UHGV virus genome: UHGV-0154679 | Direction: 5' to 3' (one strand) | DNA from: a virus | Length of the DNA: 40,171 nt | Part shown: positions 1-25,304 of the stretch, piece by piece | Layout: each line of letters opens with the position of its first letter | How positions within the stretch are numbered: position 1 is the first letter of the stretch | Position numbers and translations under genes: made by a program | The notes under the pieces: model-generated | The model's input: only the letters and a program-made list of their open reading frames with translations | What the model was told of the DNA's origin: nothing | Database searches by the model: none

Positions 1-122
1 CGCTAATTGCAAAGCCACATGTCCTGATGGCTGACAACATCATCCCGGCACCAAAGCGCCGCCATACCGGTATTGCATCGGCACGACGAGCAGCAAAGAG
101 ACGCAGGAGAGCAAAACGATGA
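1..122 (+). CDS. 3' end of an upstream ORF (partial; continues left of window)
   Basis: Frame 3 is open from the window edge to TGA at 120-122, overlapping the next ATG (ATGA junction). Confidence 0.3.
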   Translation, partial: LIAKPHVLMADNIIPAPKRRHTGIASARRAAKRRRRAKR

Positions 123-307
123 AAAACCGTAAAGCAAAGATTCTGTTAGTTCGTAGAAACGCTCCTGGCGTCTGGCAGTGGGTGAGACTCAGCAACCGAC
201 GGATGGGGTTAATGAAACATTACGGGATGATGGATTGTGGTTTTTGCAAAAAGCCCAGCGCGGCGCAAAACCGCTGGAAAAACCACTTGCGTACTAAAGG
301 AGAGTGA
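119..307 (+). CDS. Hypothetical small basic protein (62 aa)
   Basis: ATG overlaps the upstream stop; stop lies 1 nt before the next gene's ATG. Tight operon packing is the only support. Confidence 0.35.
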   Translation: MKNRKAKILLVRRNAPGVWQWVRLSNRRMGLMKHYGMMDCGFCKKPSAAQNRWKNHLRTKGE

Positions 308-308
308 T

Positions 309-518
309 ATGGCTATCGCTGCAAGTTACACCATGCATCTCTATTGTGACTGCCGTCAGTGCACGGAAGGTGTATATCCAGTGCCAGACTTCGGTGAGTA
401 TATAGGTACGTCATGGGCTGGCTGTGCAAAAGAGGCGCGCAAGGATGGCTGGCGAATAAGCAAAGACAAAACGCGTGCTTTTGCGCCCGGGCATAAAGTT
501 TTGAGGGTTAACAAATGA
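309..518 (+). CDS. Hypothetical Cys-containing small protein (69 aa)
   Basis: Strong SD AAGGAG 7 nt upstream of ATG 309; contains a CDC..QC cysteine cluster. Track ORF 237-518 trimmed to the SD-supported start. Confidence 0.45.
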   Translation: MAIAASYTMHLYCDCRQCTEGVYPVPDFGEYIGTSWAGCAKEARKDGWRISKDKTRAFAPGHKVLRVNK

Positions 519-1423
519 CCACTATAACCAAAGAGCGACTACGGACAATCAAGCAGTGGCGCGAAACATACGGACCTGGTAGCAACGTTGTACTGCCAGC
601 AGAAGAAGCGGAAGAACTGGCACGAATTGCTCTGGCATCGCTGGAGCAGAATGTACTATCGGGCAACTCTCCGCTTATTCCTGGTGAAGTGTTGTCCGCA
701 ATCCGGGAGGTTGCCAGGATTCGTGCCGATTTCGATGATTTTGACGGTGACAGGCGAGGTATCGGTGATTGTCTGGATGAGGCCGAGCAAGAGCTTATCG
801 TTACCATTAACAAATATGCCAGTCAGTTGGCAGCAGAACCGATAGCGACTAATGACGTTCGAGAGCAAACAGCCGTTCCGCCAATACAGGCTGATGTCGC
901 GCAAGCAATTGAAAATCTCAAGCAGAAGTTAGTGGAATGCAATCGCTATAACTACTGCGCAGATGCAGTGAAGAACGTAGAGGATGCCTGCCGTGCTGTT
1001 AGCTATAGCCAAGCCGACAATCAGCCAGCATCTGGCAACCAGGCTGCCGAATCCAATCGCGATAATGAGTGGACTGGCAATCCTGATATTGATAACGCCA
1101 TCATCATGCTCGACCGCATAGATACGCTGGAAAATTGCGATGATGACCGTATTGAGGCTGTTAAGGCTGTTTTGCGTAGACTGGCTGGCAACTATCCGGT
1201 AATTCCGGATGGTTGGATAAGCTGTAGTGAGCGAATGCCTGAGAACATTCCCGGAAGTTGTAAAGAGTATCTGGTGTTTGATGGGCTTAATAATAAAGTT
1301 CATCACGATTACTGGGTTGTCCCTGATGGAGACAGTGCGCCAGTTGCGTCGTTCTGGAATCATTACGGGGCACATGTAACTCACTGGATGCCTCTACCAG
1401 AACCGCCGCAGGAGGCGAAATGA
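515..1423 (+). CDS. Phage protein with DUF551-like C-terminal domain (302 aa)
   Basis: C-terminus ...VVPDGDSAPVASFWNHYGAHVTHWMPLPEPP resembles the DUF551 signature; ATGA overlap with the next ORF. Confidence 0.6.
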   Translation: MTTITKERLRTIKQWRETYGPGSNVVLPAEEAEELARIALASLEQNVLSGNSPLIPGEVLSAIREVARIRADFDDFDGDRRGIGDCLDEAEQELIVTINKYASQLAAEPIATNDVREQTAVPPIQADVAQAIENLKQKLVECNRYNYCADAVKNVEDACRAVSYSQADNQPASGNQAAESNRDNEWTGNPDIDNAIIMLDRIDTLENCDDDRIEAVKAVLRRLAGNYPVIPDGWISCSERMPENIPGSCKEYLVFDGLNNKVHHDYWVVPDGDSAPVASFWNHYGAHVTHWMPLPEPPQEAK

Positions 1424-2843: not shown

Positions 2844-3469
2844 CCAGAATCACTGAAGAGCGCATATCAGAGATTATTTCCCGTATCGAAATGTATGGTC
2901 ACGGTGCTGGATATACGGCAGATGAAGTATTGGAAATAGCCCAGCAGATGCTGGCCTTGAGACAAAAAGAGCAACATGAAAGTAATACGTGTAGATTGAA
3001 TTTTGAGCATTGGCTGGAACAGCAACGCGGAAAAATCGATGTGGACTGTGGTTGTGTGTCCACTGAAACATTCATGCACTGGCTGTGGGTAGCTTACGAG
3101 GCTGGCAACTATCCGGATATTCCGGATAGTTCGGTGCCAGCACCAGGAAAGGGCGTCACCGGTGAACGTATCCGAATTAAGCCGCATGTTTATCGCGAAC
3201 TGGTTAACCGTCTCCACGATACAGCGATCAAGTGTGCTGGCACCCAGCAATTACGAGAAAGAATTAGCCGTGTTTTGGGCGACGTTATTACACCAGATCA
3301 TCATAAACAAGCCGAGAAAAGTGGCCTGGAAAGGTGTCACCTTGAGGCGGCATTAAACATTAAGCCGGGGCATACGCTTGGCATTATTGATGCACTATTG
3401 GTTCATAAGATGGCCAGGGCTTTATTGCCGCTGGTGGATGCTGGCGATACAAGCGAGGGTGAAGTATGA
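2825..3469 (+). CDS. Hypothetical protein (214 aa)
   Basis: Long ORF in the same-strand gene array; start uncertain (ATG 2825 or 2840). Confidence 0.5.
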   Translation: MAQKEMTRITEERISEIISRIEMYGHGAGYTADEVLEIAQQMLALRQKEQHESNTCRLNFEHWLEQQRGKIDVDCGCVSTETFMHWLWVAYEAGNYPDIPDSSVPAPGKGVTGERIRIKPHVYRELVNRLHDTAIKCAGTQQLRERISRVLGDVITPDHHKQAEKSGLERCHLEAALNIKPGHTLGIIDALLVHKMARALLPLVDAGDTSEGEV

Positions 3470-3828
3470 GAGTTGCAGATCACATCAAACACCTTGAAAG
3501 AATTATCGAAAACGGTGAACTCTTAAGAGATCAGATGAGACGCACGGCAGAAGTCAGAGAGGCGATAATCCGCAGTCAGGCTGGTAAATTAAAGCAATTA
3601 TCAGAGATTAACGCGCTATACAAGAACAGACGTAACCGGGCGGCGCTGCGGCTTCAGAAAGCACGTAATGAAATTAAAGTGGTGGAGGCAAAACTGAAAA
3701 AACAGATTCAGCGTTACGATCAGCAAGATGCTTTTTATGCCGCCATCAAGGCGGCTGCTAATGAAATAGGCATCTGGAAGTTGCTGGTGGAGAAAGCAAA
3801 GACGAAGTTAAATGCCAACGAAAGCTGA
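3466..3828 (+). CDS. Hypothetical coiled-coil protein (120 aa)
   Basis: ATGA overlap with the upstream ORF; SD GAGGGTGAAG; charged helical sequence. Confidence 0.5.
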   Translation: MRVADHIKHLERIIENGELLRDQMRRTAEVREAIIRSQAGKLKQLSEINALYKNRRNRAALRLQKARNEIKVVEAKLKKQIQRYDQQDAFYAAIKAAANEIGIWKLLVEKAKTKLNANES

Positions 3829-3902
3829 ACTACAGGTACCCACCAGCACATACAGAAAATGATTGTTTCCACATCAAGGAGATTTTAATGTTTCACTGAA
3901 CA

Positions 3903-4040
3903 TTAAGTAAGCCAGTGCATAATTCCATTTTTTACTGACCTTAAAAGCAAAATCAAAACGATGATGAGGATGATCGCCAGAATCTGGCTAATAACAGGCG
4001 CATCTAAAAATGCACTCAGGAACTGAAAAAAAGCAGTCAT
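3903..4040 (-). CDS. Candidate small hydrophobic peptide (45 aa)
   Basis: Minus-strand ATG at 4040 with AAGGA about 10 nt upstream; translation MTAFFQFLSAFLDAPVISQILAIILIIVLILLLRSVKNGIMHWLT, a single predicted TM helix. Confidence 0.25.
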   Translation of the reverse strand: MTAFFQFLSAFLDAPVISQILAIILIIVLILLLRSVKNGIMHWLT

Positions 4041-4449
4041 TAAGGTGGTTCCTTGTCAAATGTAAAGGAGCACTTGCTCACGTTGACGTAGAAACCCAAC
4101 CCCTATATAGTTGGATTCGGTGAAAGAAAGTCGTTAACGTGAGCTTACGGCACATGTTTTCGGAACAACATCAGGGAACGGCTAATTCCTTGATGCGGAT
4201 GGGGTCTGTAATGCAGACCCTATCTATTAACGTCATGATTGCATCTCAAATTTTCTCCTTATCTTCATTAATCAAAATTCATTTCATTTGTGAAACATCA
4301 CAATATTTAGAAAATGGCCCTCTTGCAAGTGCATAACTTTGTGGATAAATCAGGAAGAAAAAAGTTGATTCTGCGCACGGCAAGGCAGATAAGCTGTGCA
4401 CAAAAATCAATGGGAAAAGAAAAAAAATTAAAAGTTACTTTGCTGGTTA

Positions 4450-4457
4450 AATAATAG
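4450..4457. repeat. IS26 target-site duplication, left copy (AATAATAG)
   Basis: Identical 8-mer at 5278-5285 directly abutting the other IS end. Confidence 0.9.
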
Positions 4458-5277
4458 GGCACTGTTGCAAATAGTCGGTGGTGATAAACTTATCATCCCC
4501 TTTTGCTGATGGAGCTGCACATGAACCCATTCAAAGGCCGGCATTTTCAGCGTGACATCATTCTGTGGGCCGTACGCTGGTACTGCAAATACGGCATCAG
4601 TTACCGTGAGCTGCAGGAGATGCTGGCTGAACGCGGAGTGAATGTCGATCACTCCACGATTTACCGCTGGGTTCAGCGTTATGCGCCTGAAATGGAAAAA
4701 CGGCTGCGCTGGTACTGGCGTAACCCTTCCGATCTTTGCCCGTGGCACATGGATGAAACCTACGTGAAGGTCAATGGCCGCTGGGCGTATCTGTACCGGG
4801 CCGTCGACAGCCGGGGCCGCACTGTCGATTTTTATCTCTCCTCCCGTCGTAACAGCAAAGCTGCATACCGGTTTCTGGGTAAAATCCTCAACAACGTGAA
4901 GAAGTGGCAGATCCCGCGATTCATCAACACGGATAAAGCGCCCGCCTATGGTCGCGCGCTTGCTCTGCTCAAACGCGAAGGCCGGTGCCCGTCTGACGTT
5001 GAACACCGACAGATTAAGTACCGGAACAACGTGATTGAATGCGATCATGGCAAACTGAAACGGATAATCAACGCCACGCTGGGATTTAAATCCATGAAGA
5101 CGGCTTACGCCACCATCAAAGGTATTGAGGTGATGCGTGCACTACGCAAAGGCCAGGCCTCAGCATTTTATTATGGTGATCCCCTGGGCGAAATGCGCCT
5201 GGTAAGCAGAGTTTTTGAAATGTAAGGCCTTTGAATAAGACAAAAGGCTGCCTCATCGCTAACTTTGCAACAGTGCC
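4458..5277 (+). mobile_element. IS26: IS26 (IS6 family), complete 820-bp copy
   Basis: 14-bp terminal inverted repeats GGCACTGTTGCAAA (4458-4471) and TTTGCAACAGTGCC (5264-5277); internal ORF is the IS26 transposase; flanked by 8-bp direct repeat AATAATAG. Confidence 0.95.
4521..5225 (+). CDS. tnp26: IS26 transposase Tnp26 (234 aa)
   Basis: Protein begins [60 protein letters not shown], recognised as IS26/IS6-family DDE transposase. Track ORF 4503 trimmed to ATG 4521. Confidence 0.95.
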
Positions 5278-5285
5278 AATAATAG
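5278..5285. repeat. IS26 target-site duplication, right copy (AATAATAG)
   Basis: Identical 8-mer at 4450-4457. Confidence 0.9.
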
Positions 5286-5317
5286 TCGTTACGCAATTGT
5301 TCTGGATGGGATTTGAT

Positions 5318-5569
5318 ATGCACGATTGGAATATTGCAGCTAAAAGTCAGGAAGAACGGGATAAGGTTAACGTTGATCTGGCTGCCAGCGGTGTGGCGTA
5401 CAAAGAGCGATTGAACATACCTGTCATAGCTGAACAGGTAGCCCGCGAGCAACCAGAGAATCTGCGCACCTATTTCATGGAACGGTTACGGCACTATCGG
5501 CAGTTAAGCCTCCAGTTGCCAAAAGGGAGCGATCCGGTGTATCAGAACGAGGATGCACCAAAAAAATAA
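5318..5569 (+). CDS. hot: Hot, homologue of DNA polymerase III theta subunit (83 aa)
   Basis: [36 protein letters not shown] resembles E. coli HolE; SD GGATGGG before ATG 5318 (internal Met of track ORF 5231). Confidence 0.85.
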
Positions 5570-5654
5570 CGGCAAGATGGGGGAGAAATGTGATTAGCCC
5601 CCAGCGTGGCGCGCCTACAAACCCCGCTTTCACAAACTATGCCTTTTCAATGTA

Positions 5655-5674
5655 TACTGTATGAATAAACAGTA
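5655..5674 (+). promoter_or_regulatory. LexA (SOS) box TACTGTATGAATAAACAGTA upstream of humD
   Basis: Matches CTGT-N8-ACAG exactly; lies 19 nt upstream of the humD ATG. Confidence 0.8.
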
Positions 5675-5692
5675 TCATTGAGGTAAAACGCT

Positions 5693-6082
5693 ATGGGCTT
5701 CCCTTCTCCTGCGGCGGATTATGTTGAAAGCCGAATTTCTCTTGATCAGCAGATAATTAGACATCCTTCAGCGACCTACTTCATGCGGGCAGCTGATAGC
5801 CATCACCGTGAGGGAATATTGCAGGGTGCTTTGCTGGTGGTTGATTCCTCGCTTACTCCGGTTGATGGTTCTCTGCTTGTGTGCGCTATGGAGGGTGAAT
5901 ATCGCATAAAGAGATACAGGAAGTATCCGCGCCAGCACCTGGAGGACTTAAGCACCGGGAAGAAAGAGGCGTTACCAGTAGATGACGATGGATACACGGG
6001 CAGTAATGCTGTTTTTGGTGTGATCACTCATGTCATCAATGATGCCCGAAGTGGGGAATTTGATGATTGTCCGGTTATTTAA
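5693..6082 (+). CDS. humD: HumD, UmuD-like SOS mutagenesis protein (129 aa)
   Basis: UmuD/LexA-type peptidase fold sequence; preceded by a LexA box; same position as P1 humD before phd-doc. Confidence 0.85.
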   Translation: MGFPSPAADYVESRISLDQQIIRHPSATYFMRAADSHHREGILQGALLVVDSSLTPVDGSLLVCAMEGEYRIKRYRKYPRQHLEDLSTGKKEALPVDDDGYTGSNAVFGVITHVINDARSGEFDDCPVI

Positions 6083-6117
6083 GCTGCAAAGTGCTGGTGC
6101 TTTATGCCTGTGAAGTT

Positions 6118-6145
6118 TATAATTGTGTACGCATAACGAGTACAC
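6118..6145 (+). promoter_or_regulatory. phd-doc promoter/operator: TATAAT plus GTGTAC...GTACAC inverted repeat
   Basis: TATAAT at 6118-6123 followed by inverted repeat arms at 6125-6130 and 6140-6145, just upstream of the phd ATG. Confidence 0.5.
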
Positions 6146-6154
6146 GAGGTGTTT

Positions 6155-6376
6155 ATGCAATCCATTAACTTCCGTACCGCGCGTGGCAACCTTTCTGAAG
6201 TGCTCAACAATGTTGAAGCCGGGGAAGAGGTTGAAATCACCCGCAGAGGCCGTGAGCCAGCAGTAATTGTCAGCAAGGCTACTTTCGAAGCCTACAAAAA
6301 AGCGGCGCTGGATGCTGAATTTGCATCCCTGTTTGACACCCTGGACTCCACCAACAAGGAACTGGTTAACCGATAA
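6155..6376 (+). CDS. phd: Phd antitoxin (73 aa)
   Basis: [73 protein letters not shown], recognised as P1 Phd; TAATG overlap with doc. Confidence 0.92.
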
Positions 6377-6756
6377 TGAGGCATATATCACCGGAAGAAC
6401 TTATTGCGCTTCATGATGCGAATATAAGCCGCTACGGCGGCCTGCCGGGAATGTCTGATCCGGGTAGGGCAGAGGCCATTATCGGGAGAGTTCAGGCCAG
6501 AGTTGCCTACGAAGAGATCACCGACCTTTTCGAAGTCTCCGCCACCTACCTGGTGGCTACAGCGAGAGGGCATATATTCAATGATGCCAATAAGCGTACC
6601 GCGCTAAACAGCGCGCTGCTATTTCTACGCCGTAACGGGGTGCAGGTATTTGATTCACCTGAACTGGCAGACCTTACTGTAGGCGCTGCGACTGGCGAGA
6701 TATCTGTATCTTCTGTCGCCGACACGTTACGTAGATTGTATGGTTCTGCGGAGTAG
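6376..6756 (+). CDS. doc: Doc toxin (Fic-fold kinase, 126 aa)
   Basis: 126-aa protein translationally coupled to phd; recognised as P1 Doc. Confidence 0.92.
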
Positions 6757-6760
6757 ATTA

Positions 6761-6940
6761 ATGGCACGCAAATACAACAAATTGTCCCGTGAAGCGTTAA
6801 AGATGCTTCTTGATGGCGTGAGTCGCCGCAAGGTAAAGCAATACCTGGTTGGTAAGCAAATTGGAGTCAGGACCGCTATTGCTGTGTTATGCCGTCAGGA
6901 AATGGTTGTGCTTAAACAGAGAATGCCGGGCAGCAGATAA
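6761..6940 (+). CDS. Small basic protein downstream of doc (59 aa; pdcA position)
   Basis: ATG 6761 with GGAG 8 nt upstream; name by synteny only. Confidence 0.45.
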   Translation: MARKYNKLSREALKMLLDGVSRRKVKQYLVGKQIGVRTAIAVLCRQEMVVLKQRMPGSR

Positions 6941-6967
6941 AGCCCAATCAGTGATTAAAGGTGTGAT

Positions 6968-8011
6968 GTGAAAGCCATAATTACTCCCTTTGTACAGAAA
7001 GAGCTTGGCCTCGCCACGTTCAAAGTGGATCAGGAGGTCAGAAAGCTGGTGGAGGCTGGCCGTAAATTTATTATGGAGCCGGTGCCGCGTGAGTTAATCG
7101 AGCACATGGAAGACGGCCTCGTTGTTACCGAGCAAACCATGGCAACAAATGAGGCGTTGCAGCCGTTTTTTAACAGCGATGAACTGTTTCGCCGTATTGG
7201 TGGAATTGACGCGCTGGTGGCGTGGTTGCGTAGGAAAGAGGGTCAATGCCAGGCCGCAGATCGTAGTTGGTGTGACAACCATATTGTCCACGCTGAACGA
7301 GACAATAGCGCGGTGTTGTTGTGCTGGCATCACGATAACCATTACCGGATGCGTGGTTTTAATGAGCTGAAAGAAACGCTGCACAATAATCGCGTTAACT
7401 GGATACTGGATGTCGCCCGTCAGGAAATGGGCCTTTCAAATAGCCATGATTTAAGTATTCAGGAGCTGTGCTGGTGGGCTTTCATGCGCAACATGATGCA
7501 CCTGATGCCGGAAGAAGTCTGCCGCATATCAATAAATAAGATGAAGGCTACTCCGCAGGATAGCGGACCTCTGAAAGAGGCGGATATTCGCCCGTATGAC
7601 GATCGCGCTACAGCATATGTTCAGATGATGGAAGAACGCGCCGCGCCGATGCGTGCAAAAGTATGCCCTGTGGATGTTGACTCCGACCCTGGCATGGCGC
7701 ATTTCAAAATACCAAAACTGCGATCGCTAAAATTACCTGAGTACATGGACTTTGTTGCTTCCCGTCCATGCTGTGGGTGTGGAGCTGCGGGAGCTGGCGC
7801 TCACATTACGCCTTATATCGTTCGTCATAGTCGATTATGCGCGCATGACATTTACGCAATTCCTCTGTGCCAGTCATGCCAGCGTGATATTGAGCGTGAC
7901 CGCGATAATTGGGAGAAGACGCACGGTAGGCTGGCGATGCATCAACGATTGTTCTTTGATTACGCGCTTGGAGTCGGCGCTATCACAAGTCACTCGTCGA
8001 GCGGTAGATAA
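6968..8011 (+). CDS. Cys-rich protein downstream of doc (347 aa; pdcB position)
   Basis: GTG start with AAAGGTG SD; C-terminal CCGCG and CQSCQ cysteine clusters; name by synteny only. Confidence 0.5.
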
Positions 8012-8012
8012 A

Positions 8013-8029
8013 ATTGCTCTAATGTATTG
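8013..8029 (+). promoter_or_regulatory. C1 operator-like 17-mer ATTGCTCTAATGTATTG upstream of lpa
   Basis: Close match to the asymmetric P1 C1 operator consensus ATTGCTCTAATAAATTT as I recall it; a weaker overlapping copy at 8026-8042. Confidence 0.6.
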
Positions 8030-8099
8030 CTATTTCTTTAATCGAGGGTATTATATTCCACGTTGATTAGTTGACATGGGCTAATCAGTAGGTGACAGG

Positions 8100-8552
8100 A
8101 TGTTACTTAACTGGCAGGGACGCCACTTCATGGAAATAAATCACTCACGAATAACATCGTACGAGATTGCGGATTACATGATCCGCACTAAATCTCTTCT
8201 ATCAGCGAAAGAACTCGCAGCAATTCTTGAAAAGGAATACCCGCATCTGGATGTCGATAAGCGAGACGTTTATCTGCGCTTAAAGGCTATCGCTGTGTCT
8301 AAGTATTCGTCTGTTTTGATTGATGACAGTACACGCCCACGTAGATTTCAGATCCACTCTCTGAATCCTGAATTCTTTCGCCGCAGCCGCGCGCCGCGCC
8401 GGTTTGATGAAAAACTCCAGAACGACCTCTATATGACGCAGGACGAAAAGGAACGCCGGGAACACCAGCCTTGGGTAATGGCGCGTCAACTTTTCAATAA
8501 GGTAGCCCGTCAGCACCGTCATTACGGTAATGCCACATCCGCACGTATCTGA
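8100..8552 (+). CDS. lpa: Lpa, late promoter activator (150 aa)
   Basis: 150-aa basic protein immediately upstream of pacA and downstream of a C1 operator, as in P1. Confidence 0.75.
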   Translation: MLLNWQGRHFMEINHSRITSYEIADYMIRTKSLLSAKELAAILEKEYPHLDVDKRDVYLRLKAIAVSKYSSVLIDDSTRPRRFQIHSLNPEFFRRSRAPRRFDEKLQNDLYMTQDEKERREHQPWVMARQLFNKVARQHRHYGNATSARI

Positions 8553-8637
8553 TTGATTGCTTGCCCGTTCCGGGCCTTTTGACATGTGACTTTCGTTACC
8601 CTCGCGTCAAAAAGAGTTTTTACGAAAGGAAGCATAA

Positions 8638-9831
8638 GTGACCTGGGACGATCACAAGAAGAATTTTGCTCGCCTGGCGCGAGATGGTGGTTACACCATC
8701 GCACAATATGCCGCCGAGTTTAATCTCAACCCAAACACCGCACGTCGTTATCTCCGTGCATTCAAAGAAGACACCAGAACAGCGGACAGCCGTAAGCCAA
8801 ATAAGCCTGTCAGGAAACCACTAAAAAGCATGATCATTGATCACGCTAATGATCAACGTGCAGGTGATCACATTGTGGCTGAAATGGCTGAAAAACAAAG
8901 AGTTAATGCTGTTGTCAGTGCCGCAGTCGAGAACGCTAAGCGCCAAAATAAGCGCATAAATGATCGTTCTGATGATCATGACGTGATCACCCGCGCCCAC
9001 CGTACCTTACGTGATCGCCTGGAACGCGACACCCTGGATGATGATGGTGAACGCTTTGAATTCGAAGCTGGCGATTACCTGATAGATAACGTTGAAGCGC
9101 GGAAGGCCGCGCGCGCTATGTTGCGTCGGTCCGGGGCCGATGTTCTGGAAACCACTCTTCTGGAAAAGTCTCTTTCTCATCTCCTTATGCTGGAGAACGC
9201 CAGGGATACGTGTATTCGCCTGGTGCAGGAAATGCGCGATCAGCAAAAAGACGATGATGAAGGTACTCCGCCTGAATACCGTATCGCGAGCATGCTAAAC
9301 AGCTGTTCCGCGCAGATAAGCAGCCTGATCAACACCATTTACAGCATCCGGAATAACTATCGAAAAGAAAGCCGGGAGGCGGAAAAGCACGCTTTGTCTA
9401 TGGGGCAAGCTGGCATTGTTAAGCTGGCATACGAACGAAAGCGTGAAAATAACTGGTCAGTGCTGGAAGCAGCTGAATTCATTGAGGCGCATGGCGGGAA
9501 AGTGCCGCCCCTGATGCTGGAGCAAATCAAAGCCGATCTGCGTGCTCCTAAGACCAATACCGATGATGAGGAAAGGCAAACAGCCGTCGGTGGCCCTTCT
9601 CTTGAAGATCTGGACAAAGTTGCGCGAGAACGGGCCGCCAACCGCCGCGCCGATGCCGCATTGTGGATTGAGCAGCGTAGGGAAGAAATCGCCGATATCG
9701 TTGATACAGGCGGTTATGGAGATGTTGATACTGAAGGTGTATCAAACGACCCATGGCTGGAACAAGACCTGGACGAAGACGAGGAGGAAGACGAAGAAGT
9801 TACCCGCAAGCTATACGGGGATGATGATTAA
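8638..9831 (+). CDS. pacA: PacA, terminase small (pac-recognition) subunit (397 aa)
   Basis: GTG start with AAAGGAAG SD; 397 aa; contains the hexamer pac site in its 5' part; acidic C-terminus; TAATG coupling to pacB. Confidence 0.92.
8831..8989 (+). promoter_or_regulatory. pac packaging site: 4 + 3 TGATCA/G hexamers with Dam GATC sites
   Basis: Hexamers at 8831, 8838, 8850, 8865 (left cluster) and 8961 (TGATCG), 8973, 8984 (right cluster). Confidence 0.85.
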
Positions 9832-11315
9832 TGGCCAGAAGTTGCGTAACGGACCCACGTTGGCGCGAGCTGGTGGCGCTATATCGTTATGACTGGATTG
9901 CGGCCGCTGATGTTTTGTTCGGCAAAACACCTACCTGGCAGCAGGATCTGATTATTGAGTCTGTGCAGGAACAGGGTAGCAAGACATCTGTTTCGTCTGG
10001 TCACGGTACCGGGAAATCAGACATGACTTCTATCATGATCATGTTGTTCATAATCATGTATCCCGGTGCCCGCGCCATTATCGTTGCGAACAAAATTCAG
10101 CAGGTAATGACCGGTATATTCAAGTACATCAAGATAAACTGGGCTACGGCCACCAGCCGTTTTCCATGGCTTGCTGATTATTTTGTTCTGACAGAAACCG
10201 CTTTCTATGAGGTTACTGGTAAAGGTGTATGGACTGTAGTACCGAAGGGCTTTCGTCTGGGAAGTGAAGAAGCTCTCGCCGGTGAACACGCAGATCATCT
10301 TCTGTATATTATCGATGAAGCCTCCGGTGTCAGTGATAGAGCTTTCGGTATCATCACCGGTGCTCTTACCGGACAGGATAACCGCATCTTATTACTGTCA
10401 CAGCCTACACGCCCAAGCGGCTATTTCTACGATACACACCATAAACTGGCCAAGCGTCCTGGTAACCCTGATGGCGTTTATACGGCGATCACGCTTAACA
10501 GTGAGGAATCACCGCTGGTAACGCCAGCATTTATCAAAATGAAGCTGGCGGAGTACGGCGGGCGTGATAACCCTATGTACATGATTAAGGTACGCGGCCT
10601 ATTCCCTAAATCACAGGATGGCTTCCTTCTTGGACGTGATGAGGTTGAACGTGCAACGCGGCGGAAAGTCAAGATTGCAAAAGGATGGGGCTGGCTTGCA
10701 TGTGTGGACGTTGCTGGTGGTACGGGACGGGATAAGTCCGTTATCAATATCATGATGGTGTCCGGCCAGCGAAATAAACGCCGTGTAATCAACTATCGAA
10801 TGCTGGAATACACAGACGTTACAGAAACGCAGCTTGCCGCCAAAATTTTCGCAGAATGTAATCCTGAGCGATTCCCAAATATCACCATAGCGATAGACGG
10901 CGATGGCCTGGGTAAAGCAACGGCGGATCTGATGTACGAGTATTATGGTATTACCGTACAGCGTATACGCTGGGGTAAAAAGATGCATAGCCGTGAAGAT
11001 AAGAGCCTGTACTTTGATAAACGTGCTTATGCCAACGTTCAAGCCGCAGAGGCCGTAAAATCTGGTCGTATGAGACTGGATAAGGGTAATGAAACTATTG
11101 AGGAAGCGTCGAAAATCCCTGTAGGGATTAACTCCGCAGGTCAATGGAAGGTGATGAGTAAGGAGGATATGAAGAAAAAACTCAACCTGCACTCACCAGA
11201 CCATTGGGATACATATTGTTTCGCTATGCTGGCGGATTATGTTCCCCAGGATGAAGTGCTTAGCATCGAAGACGAAGCGCAGGTTGATGAAGCTCTGGCA
11301 TGGCTTAATGAATAA
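9831..11315 (+). CDS. pacB: PacB, terminase large subunit (494 aa)
   Basis: Walker A GHGTGKS and Walker [11 protein letters not shown]; 494 aa; coupled to pacA. Confidence 0.93.
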
Positions 11316-11339
11316 CTCATTGACCATGCCGGATAGAAA

Positions 11340-12191
11340 CTATTGCGCGCTTTCGGGGTTGTCGTTTACTGGCTGCCCCTTCTTGGTTTTACGGCTGCGC
11401 GTAACTGATGCGGCTGACTTAACCTTTTTCTCTTCGCGAGTGATGGCAATTTGTTTTTTTACATTTTCAATATCTGCCAGGCGATATATTTTTGCCTGCG
11501 GCCAGCGGTCGCAGATGATCGGTTCTATGGAGTCATAAAGGCTAAATTTTGCTTTCTCGAATTCACCGTTGATGATGATTCCATCACGGAGAGTTTCATC
11601 GCAGATAAACACACCACACAGCGGCACATGGTAACTAACTGATTTACCATCATTGTAGTTAGGGCTACTGGAAATGTAGTGGACGCGCAGCATTGTTTCG
11701 CTAAAGCCGTGTACACGCATACGGAATTTTTCATCCTCCGGGTACTGCTTCATTAGCTCTTTTGTTGCTTCCAGGTTCTCTATGTATTTCGCACTGTGCT
11801 CATTGATCCCCGCGCTTTTCTGGATGCGAATGTCCTTATCAATCAGATGAATAATGCGGCCAGCGGTCATGTTGACGCTGTTCACAGCTTCTGTCTGATA
11901 AGTCGTAACCTTACGCACACCGCGAAGGATGTTAGGCACAGGATATAAAATAGTCTTTGGGATATTGAGGTCTGGGTACTGTTCCAGTTCCCGCGCCATT
12001 AAAGTCCATTTATCAATTTCAGCCTGAATGCTGTCCGTTTCTTTGAACGGTAGAACGACAACCGGGCGTACAGGACGACCGTCGCTGGCGGCATCAACGT
12101 GTTGGGCGCGTGCAACAGCTTTTTTTAGAAAGAGATCCCTGAAGCTGACGAACTCCTGGTACAGTTGTTCGCCGTAGACATAATTTATCAT
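11340..12191 (-). CDS. c1: C1 repressor of lysogeny (283 aa)
   Basis: 283-aa protein beginning MINYVYGEQLYQEFVSF, recognised as P1 C1; lies immediately before lox with coi upstream. Confidence 0.93.
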   Translation of the reverse strand: MINYVYGEQLYQEFVSFRDLFLKKAVARAQHVDAASDGRPVRPVVVLPFKETDSIQAEIDKWTLMARELEQYPDLNIPKTILYPVPNILRGVRKVTTYQTEAVNSVNMTAGRIIHLIDKDIRIQKSAGINEHSAKYIENLEATKELMKQYPEDEKFRMRVHGFSETMLRVHYISSSPNYNDGKSVSYHVPLCGVFICDETLRDGIIINGEFEKAKFSLYDSIEPIICDRWPQAKIYRLADIENVKKQIAITREEKKVKSAASVTRSRKTKKGQPVNDNPESAQ

Positions 12192-12214
12192 TGATCCTCC
12201 TCCAGAATTGACAT

Positions 12215-12255
12215 GGCCAACAACTCACAGCGGATTACACTGGGAGTTGTTGGCC
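12215..12255. repeat. Perfect 12-bp inverted repeat GGCCAACAACTC / GAGTTGTTGGCC with 17-nt spacer between coi and c1
   Basis: Arms at 12215-12226 and 12244-12255 are exact reverse complements. Confidence 0.7.
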
Positions 12256-12301
12256 ACCATTATAGAAGGATCCAACGAAAATAATAGATTTATTAGTGCA
12301 T

Positions 12302-12511
12302 TTATTGTGAGTCTGGCTGGTTAGTGGCCATGAGATATTCGATTGTGTCAGTGAGATCATCCAGGTCGTCTTGGGTGATGCGGTACTCCTGATTGGATAT
12401 CTTTGAGTAGTGTTCAGCAATGGCGCGGGCAGCGTCGGTTTCGGCAGGGTCTACAGATAAAGCGTTAGAGCAATGTCTAACGTCGTCGATGGTTGGTGGA
12501 ATGAAAGCCAT
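12302..12511 (-). CDS. coi: Coi, C1 inactivator (69 aa)
   Basis: 69-aa acidic protein immediately upstream of c1 on the same strand; SD GAGG. Confidence 0.85.
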   Translation of the reverse strand: MAFIPPTIDDVRHCSNALSVDPAETDAARAIAEHYSKISNQEYRITQDDLDDLTDTIEYLMATNQPDSQ

Positions 12512-12749
12512 AATTATGCCTCACTGTATTGACAACACAGAGCCTGAAGCTCTGACCTACTGTTTCACCCATGATCCATGCTGGGGTAATCTAACAACAT
12601 TGCGCTGTGTGTAAGATGAGCAATGCATAGCTGTAATGCCGTTGTATAAGGTTTCCCTGTTTGCTCATTTCCTTCTGAGCCGCTCTACAACGCTGAAGAC
12701 ACATTAAATAGTGAATCCAAAGTCGTATTACGAAACGGCGGCAAAACTA

Positions 12750-12766
12750 TAATTTATTAGAGCAAT
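12750..12766 (-). promoter_or_regulatory. C1 operator-like 17-mer (minus orientation; ATTGCTCTAATAAATTA)
   Basis: 16/17 match to the recalled consensus; in the immC control region upstream of coi/c1. Confidence 0.65.
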
Positions 12767-12832
12767 TGTCAAACAACTATGAAAAACAATCCAGTTTTTG
12801 GCTGGTGGAGTGGGATTTTTCTCTCAAAATTT

Positions 12833-12849
12833 ATTGCTCTAATAATTCT
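12833..12849 (+). promoter_or_regulatory. C1 operator-like 17-mer ATTGCTCTAATAATTCT
   Basis: Divergently oriented relative to the 12750-12766 copy, 67 bp apart. Confidence 0.6.
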
Positions 12850-12892
12850 TGATTTTTATGCGCAGCTGGACGTAAACTCCTCTTCGGACCTA

Positions 12893-12926
12893 ATAACTTC
12901 GTATAGCATACATTATACGAAGTTAT
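12893..12926 (+). other. loxP: loxP site-specific recombination site
   Basis: Exact 34-mer ATAACTTCGTATA-GCATACAT-TATACGAAGTTAT. Confidence 0.98.
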
Positions 12927-12998
12927 CTTAAGGGTTATTGAACATGATCAATTTACCTGTAAATCCATACAGTTCAATACCTTATCAGGTCAAATAGT

Positions 12999-13018
12999 GA
13001 TCACTTGATCATTTGATC
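12999..13018. promoter_or_regulatory. Cluster of three Dam GATC sites (TGATCA x3) in the lox-cre intergenic region
   Basis: GATC at 12999, 13007 and 13015; an imperfect long palindrome follows at about 13025-13082. Confidence 0.5.
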
Positions 13019-13115
13019 AAGGTTGCGCTACGTAAAATCTGCGAAATGTTGGCAGTGTTAGTGCTCCAGATTTCGCGTAGCGCACTTAGCACCACCAATC
13101 AATCAGAGGTGAAAA

Positions 13116-13337
13116 ATGGGATATTCAGCTGCTAAAGTGTCCACTCATATTGAGCTTGAGAAAAACCGTGGTTACTGGCGGGCAAAAGGGTTTGATCGTG
13201 ATAGTTGTCAACTGTCATTATCGCGCGGTGAAGAGAAAATAGAACGCACGCGCGGTCGCTGGCGTTTCTATGACGAGAACCATAAACAGGTAAAGGCAGA
13301 GCCGATCCTGTACACTTTACTTAAAACCATTATCTGA
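13116..13337 (+). CDS. Possible small ORF between loxP and cre (73 aa)
   Basis: ATG 13116 preceded by GAGGTG SD; ends 8 nt before the cre ATG. May instead be non-coding cre promoter region. Confidence 0.3.
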   Translation: MGYSAAKVSTHIELEKNRGYWRAKGFDRDSCQLSLSRGEEKIERTRGRWRFYDENHKQVKAEPILYTLLKTII

Positions 13338-13344
13338 GTGTTAA

Positions 13345-14376
13345 ATGTCCAATTTACTGACCGTACACCAAAATTTGCCTGCATTACCGGTCGATGCAAC
13401 GAGTGATGAGGTTCGCAAGAACCTGATGGACATGTTCAGGGATCGCCAGGCGTTTTCTGAGCATACCTGGAAAATGCTTCTGTCCGTTTGCCGATCGTGG
13501 GCGGCATGGTGCAAGTTGAATAACCGGAAATGGTTTCCCGCAGAACCTGAAGATGTTCGCGATTATCTTCTATATCTTCAGGCGCGCGGTCTGGCAGTAA
13601 AAACTATCCAGCAACATTTGGGCCAGCTAAACATGCTTCATCGTCGGTCCGGGCTGCCACGACCAAGTGACAGTAATGCTGTTTCACTGGTCATGCGACG
13701 GATCCGAAAAGAAAACGTTGATGCCGGTGAACGTGCAAAACAGGCACTGGCGTTCGAACGCACTGATTTCGACCAGGTTCGTTCACTCATGGAAAATAGC
13801 GATCGCTGCCAGGATATACGTAATCTGGCATTTCTGGGGATTGCTTATAACACCCTATTACGTATAGCCGAAATTGCCAGGATCAGGGTTAAAGATATCT
13901 CACGTACAGACGGTGGGAGAATGCTAATCCATATTGGCAGAACGAAAACGCTGGTTAGCACCGCAGGTGTAGAGAAGGCACTTAGCCTGGGGGTAACTAA
14001 ACTGGTCGAGCGATGGATTTCTGTCTCTGGTGTGGCTGATGATCCGAATAACTACTTGTTTTGCCGTGTCAGAAAAAATGGTGTTGCCGCGCCATCTGCC
14101 ACCAGCCAGCTATCAACTCGCGCCCTGGAAGGGATTTTTGAAGCAACTCATCGATTGATTTACGGCGCTAAGGATGACTCTGGTCAGAGATACCTGGCCT
14201 GGTCTGGACACAGTGCCCGTGTCGGAGCCGCGCGAGATATGGCCCGCGCCGGAGTTTCAATACCGGAGATCATGCAAGCTGGTGGCTGGACCAACGTAAA
14301 TATTGTCATGAACTATATCCGTAACCTGGATAGTGAAACGGGGGCAATGGTGCGCCTGCTGGAAGATGGCGATTAG
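13345..14376 (+). CDS. cre: Cre tyrosine recombinase (343 aa)
   Basis: Translation MSNLLTVHQNLPALPVDATSDEVRKNLMDMFRDRQAFSEHTW...MVRLLEDGD is recognised as Cre along its length; adjacent to loxP. Confidence 0.98.
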   Translation: MSNLLTVHQNLPALPVDATSDEVRKNLMDMFRDRQAFSEHTWKMLLSVCRSWAAWCKLNNRKWFPAEPEDVRDYLLYLQARGLAVKTIQQHLGQLNMLHRRSGLPRPSDSNAVSLVMRRIRKENVDAGERAKQALAFERTDFDQVRSLMENSDRCQDIRNLAFLGIAYNTLLRIAEIARIRVKDISRTDGGRMLIHIGRTKTLVSTAGVEKALSLGVTKLVERWISVSGVADDPNNYLFCRVRKNGVAAPSATSQLSTRALEGIFEATHRLIYGAKDDSGQRYLAWSGHSARVGAARDMARAGVSIPEIMQAGGWTNVNIVMNYIRNLDSETGAMVRLLEDGD

Positions 14377-14393
14377 CCGTTCATTTGCGCTTG

Positions 14394-14410
14394 ATTGCTC
14401 TAATTATTTG
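14394..14410 (+). promoter_or_regulatory. C1 operator-like 17-mer ATTGCTCTAATTATTTG downstream of cre
   Basis: Operator consensus match between cre and the next ORF. Confidence 0.55.
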
Positions 14411-14426
14411 ATATTTATGGTGACGC

Positions 14427-14738
14427 ATGCGGAAGGATTTCAAAATAGACGGAAAATATGTGGTGCTGTCTGTAAGCTCTCAAATTCAGTCACCATCTGT
14501 CATTGTCACCGTAAAGTTGAGCGATAGGATGCCTGATATCGACTCGATATCTGTTGCGTTCCCCGTTAAAAGCATGCGGAGTGCTGAACATTTTGTGATG
14601 AATGCAACGGAGGAGGAAGCGCGGCGCGGGCTTACTAGAGTGATGGTGGAATTTGGCGAACTCCTGGGTAAGGTAAACAATGCCCTTTCAATCAGTTCAG
14701 CAAGATCCAAAGCGTTAACAGCTTCCATGATGAAATAA
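14427..14738 (+). CDS. Hypothetical protein at the cra (cre-associated) position (103 aa)
   Basis: ORF with GGTGA SD; name by synteny only. Confidence 0.45.
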   Translation: MRKDFKIDGKYVVLSVSSQIQSPSVIVTVKLSDRMPDIDSISVAFPVKSMRSAEHFVMNATEEEARRGLTRVMVEFGELLGKVNNALSISSARSKALTASMMK

Positions 14739-14743
14739 AAAAA

Positions 14744-14762
14744 GCCTGGCAAGGAGCCAGGC
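14744..14762 (-). terminator. Hairpin GCCTGGC-AAGGA-GCCAGGC with a T-run on the minus strand
   Basis: 7-bp stem flanked by A7 on the plus strand, i.e. a U-tract for leftward transcripts. Confidence 0.4.
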
Positions 14763-14869
14763 TGCACAAAAGAGCGGGTTTGTATTCCGCATCCAATCAA
14801 TCAAGAAGGAGTATAGCACACAGGTACTGAAGTGAAAAAATGTGATTCGCGATTAACAAAATATCTACC

Positions 14870-14899
14870 ATTGCTCTAATTGATTGCTATAATTAAGCC
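14870..14899 (+). promoter_or_regulatory. Two overlapping C1 operator-like sites with embedded TATAAT (ref promoter)
   Basis: ATTGCTCTAATTGATTG (14870-14886) and ATTGCTATAATTAAGCC (14883-14899); TATAAT at 14888-14893. Confidence 0.6.
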
Positions 14900-14953
14900 G
14901 CAGTTTTTGTCAACTACGAAGACGTTGCCATTACTTAACTCCTTGACATCATT

Positions 14954-14979
14954 GGCGGCCATTAGGCCGCCTTTTTTTT
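14954..14979 (+). terminator. Intrinsic terminator-like hairpin plus T8 in the ref leader
   Basis: GGCGGCC-ATTA-GGCCGCC followed by TTTTTTTT, ending 5 nt before the ref ATG. Confidence 0.6.
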
Positions 14980-14984
14980 GCCAT

Positions 14985-15545
14985 ATGAAAACAATCGAAC
15001 AAAAACTTGAACAGCGCCGCGAGTGGCAGAAGGCAGCCAGAGAACGAGCGATCGCTCGGCAACGGGAAAAGTTGGCTGACCCCGCCTGGCGAGAATCGCA
15101 ATATCAGAAAATGCGGGATTCTATCGACCGCCGTATCGCTAAACAGAAAGAGCGCCCACCAGCCAGCAAAACGCGGAAAAGTGCGGTAAAGATAAAATCT
15201 CGTGGCTTGAAGGGGCGAACATCGACAGCGGAGGAACGGAGCATCGCCAATGCTCTTGGCGCTCTCCCCTGCATTGCCTGCTACATGCATGGAGTAATAT
15301 CTGAAGAGGTATCTCTGCACCATATCTCCGGTCGTACCGCGCCGGGTTGTCACAAAAAGCAATTGCCCCTTTGTAGATGGCACCACCAGCATGCAGCACC
15401 GGCTGAAGTAAGAGAAAAATACCCCTGGCTGGTCCCTGTTCATGCCGATGGTGTGGTTGGAGGCAAGAAAGAATTCACCTTGCTGAACAAGTCAGAGATG
15501 GAGTTGCTGGCTGACGCCTATGAGATGGCAAACATCATGCACTAA
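14985..15545 (+). CDS. ref: Ref, recombination enhancement function (HNH-type endonuclease, 186 aa)
   Basis: 186 aa from ATG 14985 (MKTIEQKLEQRREW...); basic N-terminus and C-terminal Cys/His HNH-like motifs. Track ORF starts at a TTG inside the operator and was trimmed. Confidence 0.8.
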   Translation: MKTIEQKLEQRREWQKAARERAIARQREKLADPAWRESQYQKMRDSIDRRIAKQKERPPASKTRKSAVKIKSRGLKGRTSTAEERSIANALGALPCIACYMHGVISEEVSLHHISGRTAPGCHKKQLPLCRWHHQHAAPAEVREKYPWLVPVHADGVVGGKKEFTLLNKSEMELLADAYEMANIMH

Positions 15546-15734
15546 TAAATATATTATTTTTAATCTGAAATAATTGACAACTGACAAGTGACTTCAGTCA
15601 GAATCATCACATGCCCGGTACGGATGGATCCCTTTTCAAATATTCCATGGACGGCACAGTCTGAGTACCGGGCGCTACCTTCAGTTGTATTGCTAAGCCG
15701 CCGCTGGTGGCTTTTCTTTTTTGTAGGGGGCGCT

Positions 15735-16376
15735 ATGGATAAGAAAATATGCGTTGTTTCGATGAGCGTCGGCAAACCGGCGTCAATGACTGCTGCATGG
15801 ATCAACAATGAGCTAATAATGGCTGAGCGGACCAGCTACCCTGAACGCCGCCGCGATATGGAACTCCAGCTGCTGCGCGAATTGCGAGAAAAAGAGGAAA
15901 AGGGTTTTATCGTGCTGGTGGAAGAGGAAAACAGCTTTATTACTGGTCGAGTTGGCCAGCGTGTAAGGTTGCGCGATCCCTTCATGAACGGCAGGCCGGT
16001 ACTAATTGAGGCAATGCAGATTTATAAGGAGCTGGAACGCCAGAAAGCAATCAAGTTACCGCGCAAGGAATCCGGCAAATACATCCTCCACCAAAGCATC
16101 TTCGATTCCGAACACGATAAAAAAGGCGATGAATTTTTCAACATCAACTGGAGCGAAATAACGACAGAGCATGTTCTGACGTTACTATGTTGCTTTGCGA
16201 CGGAATACAACAACGTTGCCAGCGCCGACTACATCAGGGCAATGGCTGGAGAAGTTGAGGCACGCCAGGAACCATCGTTACTAAGCCCTCTGATTAACAT
16301 AATTCGCGGGACCCAAACGCTGGCACAAAAACAGGTGCCTAAGGGAGTATTAACAGGAAAAGGAAATTATCTATAA
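15735..16376 (+). CDS. Protein at the mat (particle maturation) position (213 aa)
   Basis: ATG 15735 with GTAGGGGG SD (internal Met of track ORF 15588-16376); name by synteny only. Confidence 0.45.
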   Translation: MDKKICVVSMSVGKPASMTAAWINNELIMAERTSYPERRRDMELQLLRELREKEEKGFIVLVEEENSFITGRVGQRVRLRDPFMNGRPVLIEAMQIYKELERQKAIKLPRKESGKYILHQSIFDSEHDKKGDEFFNINWSEITTEHVLTLLCCFATEYNNVASADYIRAMAGEVEARQEPSLLSPLINIIRGTQTLAQKQVPKGVLTGKGNYL

Positions 16377-16432
16377 ACGTCAATGCATTAGGGTATACTT
16401 CTCCGTAGAACTATAAGTAAATGGAGTAAGTA

Positions 16433-17737
16433 ATGAGCGAGTATATAGAAATTGCCTATGCAGCGGCTACACATAGGCTGTGCTTTCTTACAGGCACTGG
16501 ATTTTCAAAGGCTGTTTCTGATGATAAAGCCCCAAGTTGGCAATCTTTATTGGAGCAACTGTGCGGTTTATTGAAGGATGGTGACTCACTCAAAGAGGAA
16601 TTATTTCCTGATGGAAAAGCAAAAGACCTTAGCCTTGAAGAAGCTGCTCAGGTTATTGCACTAAAACTTATACTTTCGGGGGAAAATATTTACCAAGAGA
16701 TTGAGAAAATCATAGCCTCAATCGAACTTGATCCATCAATTGAATATATTCAAGACTTTTTCAAAGAAAACACATTTAAAGTAATTACGACAAATTATGA
16801 CAAGTTAGCAGAAAAGCTGGCTGGAGAGAATCGAACTTGTACAATCACCCCCGGCCTGCCAATTCCAAAATATAATTGTGAGGTTAAAGTCTACCATGTT
16901 CACGGTTCTATAGACTCCCCATCAGACATGGTTGTTACTAGCGAGGATTATTTCAGATTTATAAATGGTAATTCTTACTTTTCTAATAAACTAAGCACAG
17001 TTCTACATGAAAACACTATTGTTATCCTTGGCTATTCTCTAAGTGACGCGAACCTAAAGGCTATTATAAATGAATATAAGGTATTTTCACGGGACAACGT
17101 AATGTCCTCCAATATTTTCCTTGTTTCCCGAGGGGAACTATTGCAACCTATTAAAGATTACTATTTTTCCTGCTATGGGGTTAGGGTTATAGATAAAACA
17201 GAGGTATCTGATTTCTTTAGAAAACTTAACGATAAAATTCCAGAAGCAAAAAAAATAAAAGACAAATTGAGGCACTCAATCAAATCGGTAATAAAAAACG
17301 GAAGAGAGTATAAAATAGAGTTCTTGAAGCTAGAGGATTCTTTTTATCATATCATTTCCTCCATTTCATCATCTGGATATAGCTGGAATAATGAAAATGT
17401 ATTAAATGTTTTTTGTAATATAATAGATAAAAAAATAGAGCTTACTAAAAAGCCTGGCGCATGGGAGCAGTATGAACACCTGGCAAAATGGCTTATTTAT
17501 TTCGGTAGTTTATTTGAAGTAAAAGGAACCAATTTTGAGAAAAAATACATACATGCGGTTGAACACTCAATGACTTATATGAATAAACCTTACGAAACAG
17601 GCTACTCATGGCGAGCATATCTAGCCTGGAAAACAAAATGGCCTTCACTGACAGCATCTAACCGCTCTCTTATTAAGAATGAGATGGAAGATATCCCGCT
17701 ACAACAGATTCACGATATTGTATCTAAGTTTATATAG
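16433..17737 (+). CDS. SIR2-like (SIR2_2-type) domain protein, 434 aa, candidate NAD+-depleting defence effector
   Basis: Motifs LCFLTGTGFSKAV (Gly-rich loop), VITTNYD (N121) and VYHVHGS (H155/H157) in SIR2-like order and spacing; C-terminal region of about 170 aa is Trp/Tyr-rich and unassigned; gene is visibly AT-rich compared with its flanks (not computed); SD GGAG 9 nt upstream. Confidence 0.7.
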   Translation: MSEYIEIAYAAATHRLCFLTGTGFSKAVSDDKAPSWQSLLEQLCGLLKDGDSLKEELFPDGKAKDLSLEEAAQVIALKLILSGENIYQEIEKIIASIELDPSIEYIQDFFKENTFKVITTNYDKLAEKLAGENRTCTITPGLPIPKYNCEVKVYHVHGSIDSPSDMVVTSEDYFRFINGNSYFSNKLSTVLHENTIVILGYSLSDANLKAIINEYKVFSRDNVMSSNIFLVSRGELLQPIKDYYFSCYGVRVIDKTEVSDFFRKLNDKIPEAKKIKDKLRHSIKSVIKNGREYKIEFLKLEDSFYHIISSISSSGYSWNNENVLNVFCNIIDKKIELTKKPGAWEQYEHLAKWLIYFGSLFEVKGTNFEKKYIHAVEHSMTYMNKPYETGYSWRAYLAWKTKWPSLTASNRSLIKNEMEDIPLQQIHDIVSKFI

Positions 17738-17745
17738 TATATTTA

Positions 17746-17774
17746 TCTCCGGCCTAATCTCCCTAGGCCGGAGA
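17746..17774. terminator. 9-bp stem hairpin TCTCCGGCC...GGCCGGAGA between convergent genes
   Basis: Sits between the SIR2-like gene stop (17737) and the minus-strand ORF stop (17779). Confidence 0.45.
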
Positions 17775-17778
17775 GTTC

Positions 17779-18027
17779 TTAATCAGCATTCAGGAGCAAT
17801 GCGTTATCTATGATGATCTGCTCCCATTCTTCGAATGCCCGATCGCGGACGCCCTGGGGAACACTGTTAGTTTTGAAATCGACGACCGTACGCCATTTCC
17901 CGTCCGGACGGTACATGCGCAGAGCTTTACTTCCCCCTTCCCTGCGCACCTCAACGTTATGCTTGTCAGCAAACTCTTGTAATGCTCGTAGCGTCCCATG
18001 CTTTACTGTGTAGTATCGCTTTTTCAA
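17779..18027 (-). CDS. Small protein at the lxc/bof position (82 aa)
   Basis: 82-aa ORF downstream of darB and its 146-aa neighbour; ATGA-coupled; name by synteny and size only. Confidence 0.4.
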   Translation of the reverse strand: MKKRYYTVKHGTLRALQEFADKHNVEVRREGGSKALRMYRPDGKWRTVVDFKTNSVPQGVRDRAFEEWEQIIIDNALLLNAD

Positions 18028-18464: not shown

Positions 18465-18497
18465 ATTATGCGACGCCCGGCGAACCGGGCGCTCCTG

Positions 18498-25238: not shown

Positions 25239-25304
25239 TGGTAATCCTTAACAAGTGACTAGTGTTAAATTCCGTTCAAACACGATGCGAATTATTCTAA
25301 TTAA

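Follow-up and report, generated by a model that had tools for sequence, protein, structure and literature searches.

A solitary IS26 of the G184N type within the late promoter LPhot of a P1-like phage-plasmid

The DNA analysed here, a stretch of 40,171 bp referred to below as the window, belongs to a P1-like (IncY, Punavirus) phage-plasmid and carries a solitary, intact IS26 that encodes the G184N form of its transposase. The element lies between upfO and hot, within the annotated late promoter LPhot, at a site that is empty in all related records searched. From its anatomy and position we infer a history that we regard as very probable as a whole: IS26 would have entered by copy-in cointegration, the cointegrate would have been resolved, LPhot would have been split by the event, hot would now be served by read-through transcription, and the insertion would be neutral for the phage-plasmid. 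The event is of an ordinary and well-known type, of which the window provides a new instance with one neat positional detail, the use of the LPhot -10 region as target. This detail and the G184N transposase are two points beyond an earlier note on the same DNA.

Structure and identity of the element

On sequence inspection IS26 is complete and occupies positions 4458-5277 (820 bp, plus orientation). Its left terminal inverted repeat, GGCACTGTTGCAAA (4458-4471), has its exact reverse complement in the right repeat, TTTGCAACAGTGCC (5264-5277, minus strand); 14/14 bases match and the similarity stops past base 14. The left repeat holds the -35 hexamer of the tnp26 promoter, TTGCAA (4465-4470), to which base G10 of the repeat belongs (PMC8477213). 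Since the repeat motif, searched with up to two mismatches, is present at just two positions of the 40,171-bp window, which are the two ends of this element, the window contains a single copy of IS26. The tnp26 gene (4521-5225, plus strand) is an uninterrupted ORF, without stop codon or frameshift, for a DDE transposase of 234 aa with N at residue 184. Its product covers the NCBIfam equivalog model NF033587 (IS6 family transposase) at full length with 278 bits for a cutoff of 125, and matches Pfam DDE_Tnp_IS240 (PF13610) at 5e-49. The earlier description of an intact 820-bp IS26 with 14-bp inverted repeats and a 234-aa transposase proved exact to the base. With all the sequence features required for activity intact, this IS26 is potentially active.

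The element has everything in common with known IS26 (IS6/IS26 family; putatively the IS26-v1 / IS15-delta-I type): the same 820 bp, the 14-bp terminal repeats, the 8-bp duplication and the 234-aa DDE transposase; within the element itself there is no difference from known G184N copies. Identical copies of the 820 bp are found on many enterobacterial plasmids, at least 5000 records being matched, all with at least 99% identity among the matches listed.

Asn184 is encoded by AAC and corresponds to GG>AA at IS positions 613-614 (window 5070-5071). Among ten IS26 copies drawn from three records, six had the G184 haplotype (WP_001067855.1), three were of the same type as the window copy (WP_001067858.1) and one carried an additional change. 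The window element is identical to the three sampled N184 copies over 820/820 positions, and over 818/820 to the annotated IS26 of AB571791 and five other G184 copies. It is thus two nucleotides away from the common G184 haplotype, whereas IS26-v1 is described as having three differences, these being counted from the reference IS26 (PMC9412624). G184N defines IS26-v1 and, according to Pong 2019 as that work is cited in PMC8477213, PMC9412624 and PMC12540391, enhances cointegration activity. The same substitution is also carried by IS26-v3 (PMC12540391), and the window copy may be of either type. In one plasmid survey G184N ranked as the second most common form of Tnp26 (bioRxiv 10.1101/2024.02.20.581145).

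Target-site duplication and the empty site in relatives

IS26 is flanked by two perfect copies of the octamer AATAATAG (4450-4457 and 5278-5285, both on the plus strand), in agreement with the duplication claimed earlier. The chance of an 8-bp match at fixed positions can be put at ~1.5e-5, but the fact that relatives hold the octamer only once is more decisive in showing that the repeat is not fortuitous. In P1 the site has a single copy of the octamer, in the context ...GCTGGTTAAATAATAGTCGTTAC.... In a local BLAST comparison with NZ_CP069885, the closest plasmid found (IncY, 95.8 kb), window positions 2973-4457 and 5278-23526 align to adjacent segments of the plasmid, which share exactly 8 bp, and 4458-5277 is the sole internal gap over this range. 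Such an exact 8-bp overlap of the flanks is, as judged from the alignment, what a genuine target-site duplication leaves behind.

Deleting 4458-5285 in silico and aligning the restored junction, a check proposed in the earlier note, gave a healed site that at least 25 P1-like plasmids match over 600 bp with 100% identity; in 121 records it is covered to at least 80%. The best phage record in INPHARED, vB_EcoM-813R1, covers everything except ~820 bp. The order of the flanking genes (pmgV-like, upfN, upfO, IS26, hot, humD, phd, doc, pdcA/B, lpa, pacA) is that of the P1-family backbone.

Neither of the two IS junctions is spanned by any PLSDB record or present in 5426 complete E. coli genomes, no INPHARED phage record carries IS26 at the hot site, and neither junction was found when IMG/VR, the JGI metagenomes and the representative genomes of GTDB were scanned for exact matches. 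A synthetic junction with IS26 inverted had no match in PLSDB. The possibility of a recurrent target site was rejected, as no PLSDB record has IS26, direct or inverted, at this position or close to it. Since the junctions occur nowhere else in the collections searched, the insertion is private to the window sequence and probably recent. By the same comparisons it is neither a conserved feature of relatives nor a recurrent hotspot; conservation in related genomes, which would have spoken against the earlier interpretation, is not what was found, none of the related genomes searched having IS26 at the site.

Position of the insertion in LPhot

The P1 record NC_005856 annotates LPhot (formerly LP91/LPr91) with a -22 region at 86521-86529 and a -10 at 86539-86544, 22 bp before hot, whose start is annotated at 86567 with an alternative at 86579. 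The status of LPhot is that of a GenBank annotation of the P1 record, and Lpa-dependent initiation there is an annotated activity. The P1 promoter reads AAGTTACTT-TGCTGGTTA-AATAAT-AG-TCGTTAC. In the window the Lpa box (-22 region), AAGTTACTT, 9 bp in length, is located at 4432-4440 on the plus strand and is identical to that of P1. The P1 -10 maps to both 4450-4455 and 5278-5283, the AATAAT at 4450-4455 being the same as in P1. On the basis of this annotation, the target octamer is the LPhot -10 hexamer AATAAT together with the next 2 bp, AG, which means that LPhot would be split by the insertion.

The Lpa box, the spacer and one copy of the -10 are kept together on the left of IS26, where they face its left end; the left -10 lies 9 bp upstream of the tnp26 -35 TTGCAA, with tnp26 in sense orientation. 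hot retains only the duplicated hexamer at 5278-5283, preceded by the right inverted repeat of IS26 in place of the lost Lpa box. As the earlier note had proposed, the gene has been separated from its native upstream region, the Lpa box now being 820 bp more distant. P1 late promoters are activated by Lpa, the factor that would drive LPhot in trans; its gene, lpa, is intact at 8100-8549 (plus strand; tblastn with P1 Lpa, 99.3% identity, 150 aa).

The gap between the box and the -10 is 9 nt at LPhot (compared over 4432-4455), against 4 nt at LPpac and other box-plus-hexamer sites in the window. LPhot may deviate from the usual late promoter pattern, or initiation may use a hexamer other than the annotated -10. 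Any usable hexamer within 4445-4455 would stay on the left with the box, which leaves the topological conclusion unchanged. The 4-nt sites include LPpac at 8584-8602 and another perfect box at 38637-38619 (minus strand).

No ORF is broken by the insertion. [quoted passage not shown] Its product matches Pfam DNA_pol3_theta at 5e-34 and NCBIfam NF008207 with 104 bits (cutoff 97), and 82/87 residues are identical to P1 Hot. ATG 5306 is the start annotated in P1, while ATG 5318 is the PGAP start and has a GGGA Shine-Dalgarno sequence. The distance of 33 bp between the insertion and hot given previously holds for ATG 5318; the P1-annotated ATG 5306 is 20 bp from the right repeat. The location of IS26 directly upstream of hot in a P1-like phage-plasmid, with tnp26 reading towards this gene, was confirmed.

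Two minor features of the junctions can be mentioned. The 7-mer ACTTTGC is shared by the left flank (4437-4443, over parts of the Lpa box and of the spacer) and the inner edge of the right inverted repeat (5262-5268); the right end of IS26 thus bears ACTT, one half of a palindrome resembling an Lpa box, 12 nt ahead of the duplicated -10, which is probably a coincidence. An ORF at 5231-5569 (plus strand) begins with TTG inside the right end of IS26 and continues in frame into hot, and would give a chimeric, N-terminally extended Hot of 112 aa. No obvious Shine-Dalgarno sequence was noticed for it, and an exact-protein look-up found no such gene on record.

Expression of hot after the insertion

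Transcription of hot from an IS-borne outward promoter was proposed in the earlier note as an alternative to read-through. The TTGCAA of IS26 ends is known to combine with a resident -10 into hybrid promoters, among them those of aphA7, blaSHV-2a and blaKPC (PMC7986276), and the window has in common with these cases the presence of an IS26-end TTGCAA beside a resident -10 upstream of a gene. It differs from them in spacing, which is 16-18 bp in the known hybrid promoters and just 7 bp here, between TTGCAA of the right repeat (5265-5270) and AATAAT (5278-5283). The hexamers found at 16-18 bp from TTGCAA at the right junction, CGTTAC, GTTACG and TTACGC, do not resemble a -10. A hybrid promoter is consequently not predicted, and this candidate was rejected. 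In agreement with this, a consensus scan returned no promoter across the right junction; the lone sigma-70-like match that it gave at the junctions includes the left -10 and is directed into IS26. An outward hybrid promoter on the minus strand at the left junction was also rejected, by eye, the hexamers at 16-18 bp being AACCAG, ACCAGC and CCAGCA.

The same consensus scan detected no terminator-like sites in 4200-5700. An intrinsic terminator after the tnp26 stop was considered and rejected, as the hairpin at ~5226-5248 lacks a U-tract and the region is not more strongly folded than shuffled controls (z = -0.42). Fold-back inhibition of tnp26 translation on transcripts started outside the element was also considered: in the predicted fold of the leader of an LPhot-initiated transcript, bases derived from the left inverted repeat pair with 2/4 bases of the tnp26 Shine-Dalgarno sequence (z = -0.37, no better than shuffled controls).

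With neither a hybrid promoter nor a terminator predicted, hot most likely depends on read-through, and would be transcribed mainly from LPhot, the upstream promoters and Ptnp26. For the read-through itself, the only basis is that no intrinsic terminator is predicted. This model retains the first of the two possibilities proposed earlier as the likeliest one and leaves no predicted basis for the second. The level of the hot transcript is probably reduced. hot is reportedly non-essential for P1; the insertion would for this reason be tolerated and is most likely neutral. hot is described by Chikova & Schaaper 2007 as being expressed in both the lysogenic and the lytic stages.

Origin of the insertion

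IS26 is unable to move on its own; all that it forms are cointegrates, which arise by a copy-in or by a targeted-conservative route (PMC8477213). Resolution of a cointegrate is recA-dependent, takes place between the two IS26 copies and leaves the target with one IS and a new 8-bp repeat (PMC7986276), while the targeted-conservative and homologous routes yield no duplication (PMC7986276, PMC9602291). A lone copy flanked by a duplication implies copy-in cointegration and a later step in which homologous recombination resolved the cointegrate, and the presence of the duplication excludes targeted-conservative and plain homologous entry. The earlier view of a simple replicative transposition, as opposed to homologous recombination, is correct in that the duplication excludes homologous and targeted-conservative entry, but has to be amended because IS26 forms only cointegrates, and their resolution is itself a recombination.

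The proposed sequence of events would start from a donor IS26 present in the same cell, either in a different replicon or as part of a translocatable unit, undergoing copy-in (replicative) cointegration into AATAATAG between upfO and hot. The cointegrate, with its two IS26 copies in direct repeat, would then be resolved by homologous recombination between them, which would leave one IS26 with the 8-bp duplication on either side. Transcription initiated at LPhot would thereafter run into the left end of IS26 in the same direction as tnp26, hot would be left with the duplicated -10 and with neither an Lpa box nor a usable -35, and the phage-plasmid would become a preferred target for IS26-borne resistance units.

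The past of the element is not legible from a single sequence, and the same end state, a single IS26 with a perfect duplication, would be produced if the element were the remnant of an IS26-bounded unit, such as a pseudo-compound transposon with a resistance gene, that had lost its cargo by recombination or by excision of a translocatable unit. Units that lose their centre and leave behind a single IS26 between the original repeats are on record (PMC7986276), and in P1-like phage-plasmids the majority of resistance genes adjoin IS6/IS26 elements (PMC9600943). We nevertheless consider this origin unlikely, given that no collection searched has an IS26-bounded unit, or an IS26 in either orientation, at the site, that the window has neither a resistance gene nor a second IS26, and that cargo loss adds one step to direct cointegration and resolution. 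We are close to dismissing altogether a targeted-conservative entry, homologous recombination with an IS26 that was already present, and an artefact of a chimeric assembly. IS26 repeats often confound short-read assemblies and are in this sense a general source of such artefacts, but here a perfect 8-bp duplication of an octamer that is single-copy in relatives flanks the element, both flanks are collinear with the P1 backbone, and a chimera would not generate so precise a duplication.

The preferred history, copy-in cointegration followed by resolution, treats the position of the insertion as neutral. The opposite view is that the insertion was adaptive, either because tnp26 under an Lpa-activated promoter couples IS26 to lytic growth or because an altered expression of hot benefits the element. 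The Lpa box and the -10 are indeed intact and aimed in sense into tnp26, 9 bp upstream of its own -35, lpa is intact, and no terminator is predicted between LPhot and tnp26. Selection of this kind is very unlikely in our opinion, as the junction is present in no other record searched, giving no sign of spread or recurrence, and the site has not been reused by IS26 in either orientation in PLSDB. IS26 inserts with little target specificity, and in a gene-dense genome of 95 kb a strike in a promoter is thus unremarkable.

A related idea is that the hyperactive G184N tnp26 has come under an Lpa-activated late promoter, so that cointegration would be boosted during lytic development of P1. We think this improbable, although slightly less so than an adaptive origin of the insertion. 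If it were true, the boost would come at high copy number just before packaging, and the phage-plasmid could fuse with resident resistance plasmids, and capture genes from them, at a higher rate. Expression of tnp26 from the late promoter is unlikely to matter much.

Significance for resistance gene acquisition

Neither a further IS26 nor any resistance gene lies in the 40-kb window, beyond which the replicon has about 55 kb more. P1-like phage-plasmids often carry IS6/IS26 elements, and most of the resistance genes found there adjoin such elements (Pfeifer et al. 2022, PMC9600943). Compared with these resistance islands, the window has the same type of host element and the same IS family, but its IS26 is solitary, has no cargo within 40 kb, occupies a site that is empty in the records searched and is located inside LPhot. 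The insertion also falls in the pmgT-humD block (variable region 8/H), listed as highly variable among P1-like phage-plasmids (PMC9603915).

Cointegrates are ~100-fold more frequent if the target already carries IS26 (PMC7986276), with which the earlier suggestion of a landing pad for resistance cargo is consistent. The phage-plasmid now has an IS26 that looks active and belongs to the G184N type, the more active one; by the published work such a copy would raise its fusion with IS26-bearing DNA by about this factor. IS26-mediated fusion is thought to be the first step in the acquisition of resistance genes by P1-like phage-plasmids, which then spread them by infection. The insertion leaves the knowledge of IS26 or of P1 unchanged. 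As a natural mutation that splits its promoter, it offers a route to ask how hot is expressed, and the same insertion could show whether a phage late promoter drives an IS transposase.

Comparison with P1, P7 and the closest plasmid

Insertion sequences tolerated in non-essential or intergenic DNA of the P1 family are also represented by IS1 in P1 and IS903 in P7, which belong to IS families other than that of the window element. IS903 of P7 is in the same hot/lxr slot as the window IS26, with the difference that P7 lacks hot and has other ORFs there. In P7 (NC_050152, 1671-4254) homology to the window ends at ~4446, just before the LPhot -10, and resumes at ~5640, just upstream of humD. This replacement suggests that the hot/lxr position behaves as an exchangeable cargo slot with its left boundary at the late promoter. 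The P7 slot is filled with unrelated small ORFs, IS903 and two minus-strand ORFs.

In P1, lxr (573 bp, minus strand) separates hot from humD; it is absent from the window (5570-5692), where the two genes are 123 bp apart; vB_EcoM-813R1 and NZ_CP069885 share this arrangement. Ahead of humD, the window retains a LexA-box-like CTGT-N8-ACAG and a sigma-70-like promoter (5629-5658).

Apart from IS26 and a segment at its left end, the window differs from the near-identical NZ_CP069885 by two small mobile or accessory elements, both unrelated to IS26. This plasmid carries a TnpB element (IS200/IS605-type RNA-guided endonuclease) and a DUF2829 gene at 41669-43003 and 35782-36466, respectively, where the window has clean joints at 34952/34953 and 29746-29754. 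Window positions 1-1381 are mosaic, with patchy matches of 93-98% to the ead/Ea22-like small-ORF region of NZ_CP069885; the segments 506-663, 882-1187 and 1240-1381 are uncovered, and the whole belongs to the variable region that is known to precede pmgT-V. At the other end, window 37773-40171 extends beyond the end of the circular NZ_CP069885 record as fetched. At the position of P1 res-mod, after ref and mat-like genes, the window has a gene for a SIR2-family protein (~16430-17740; NZ_CP069885 22440-23744), which is possibly an alternative defence cargo. Beside it, on the minus strand, lies a 6.8-kb N6-DNA-methylase gene (~18500-25270; NZ_CP069885 24505-31272), which we take as darB-like.
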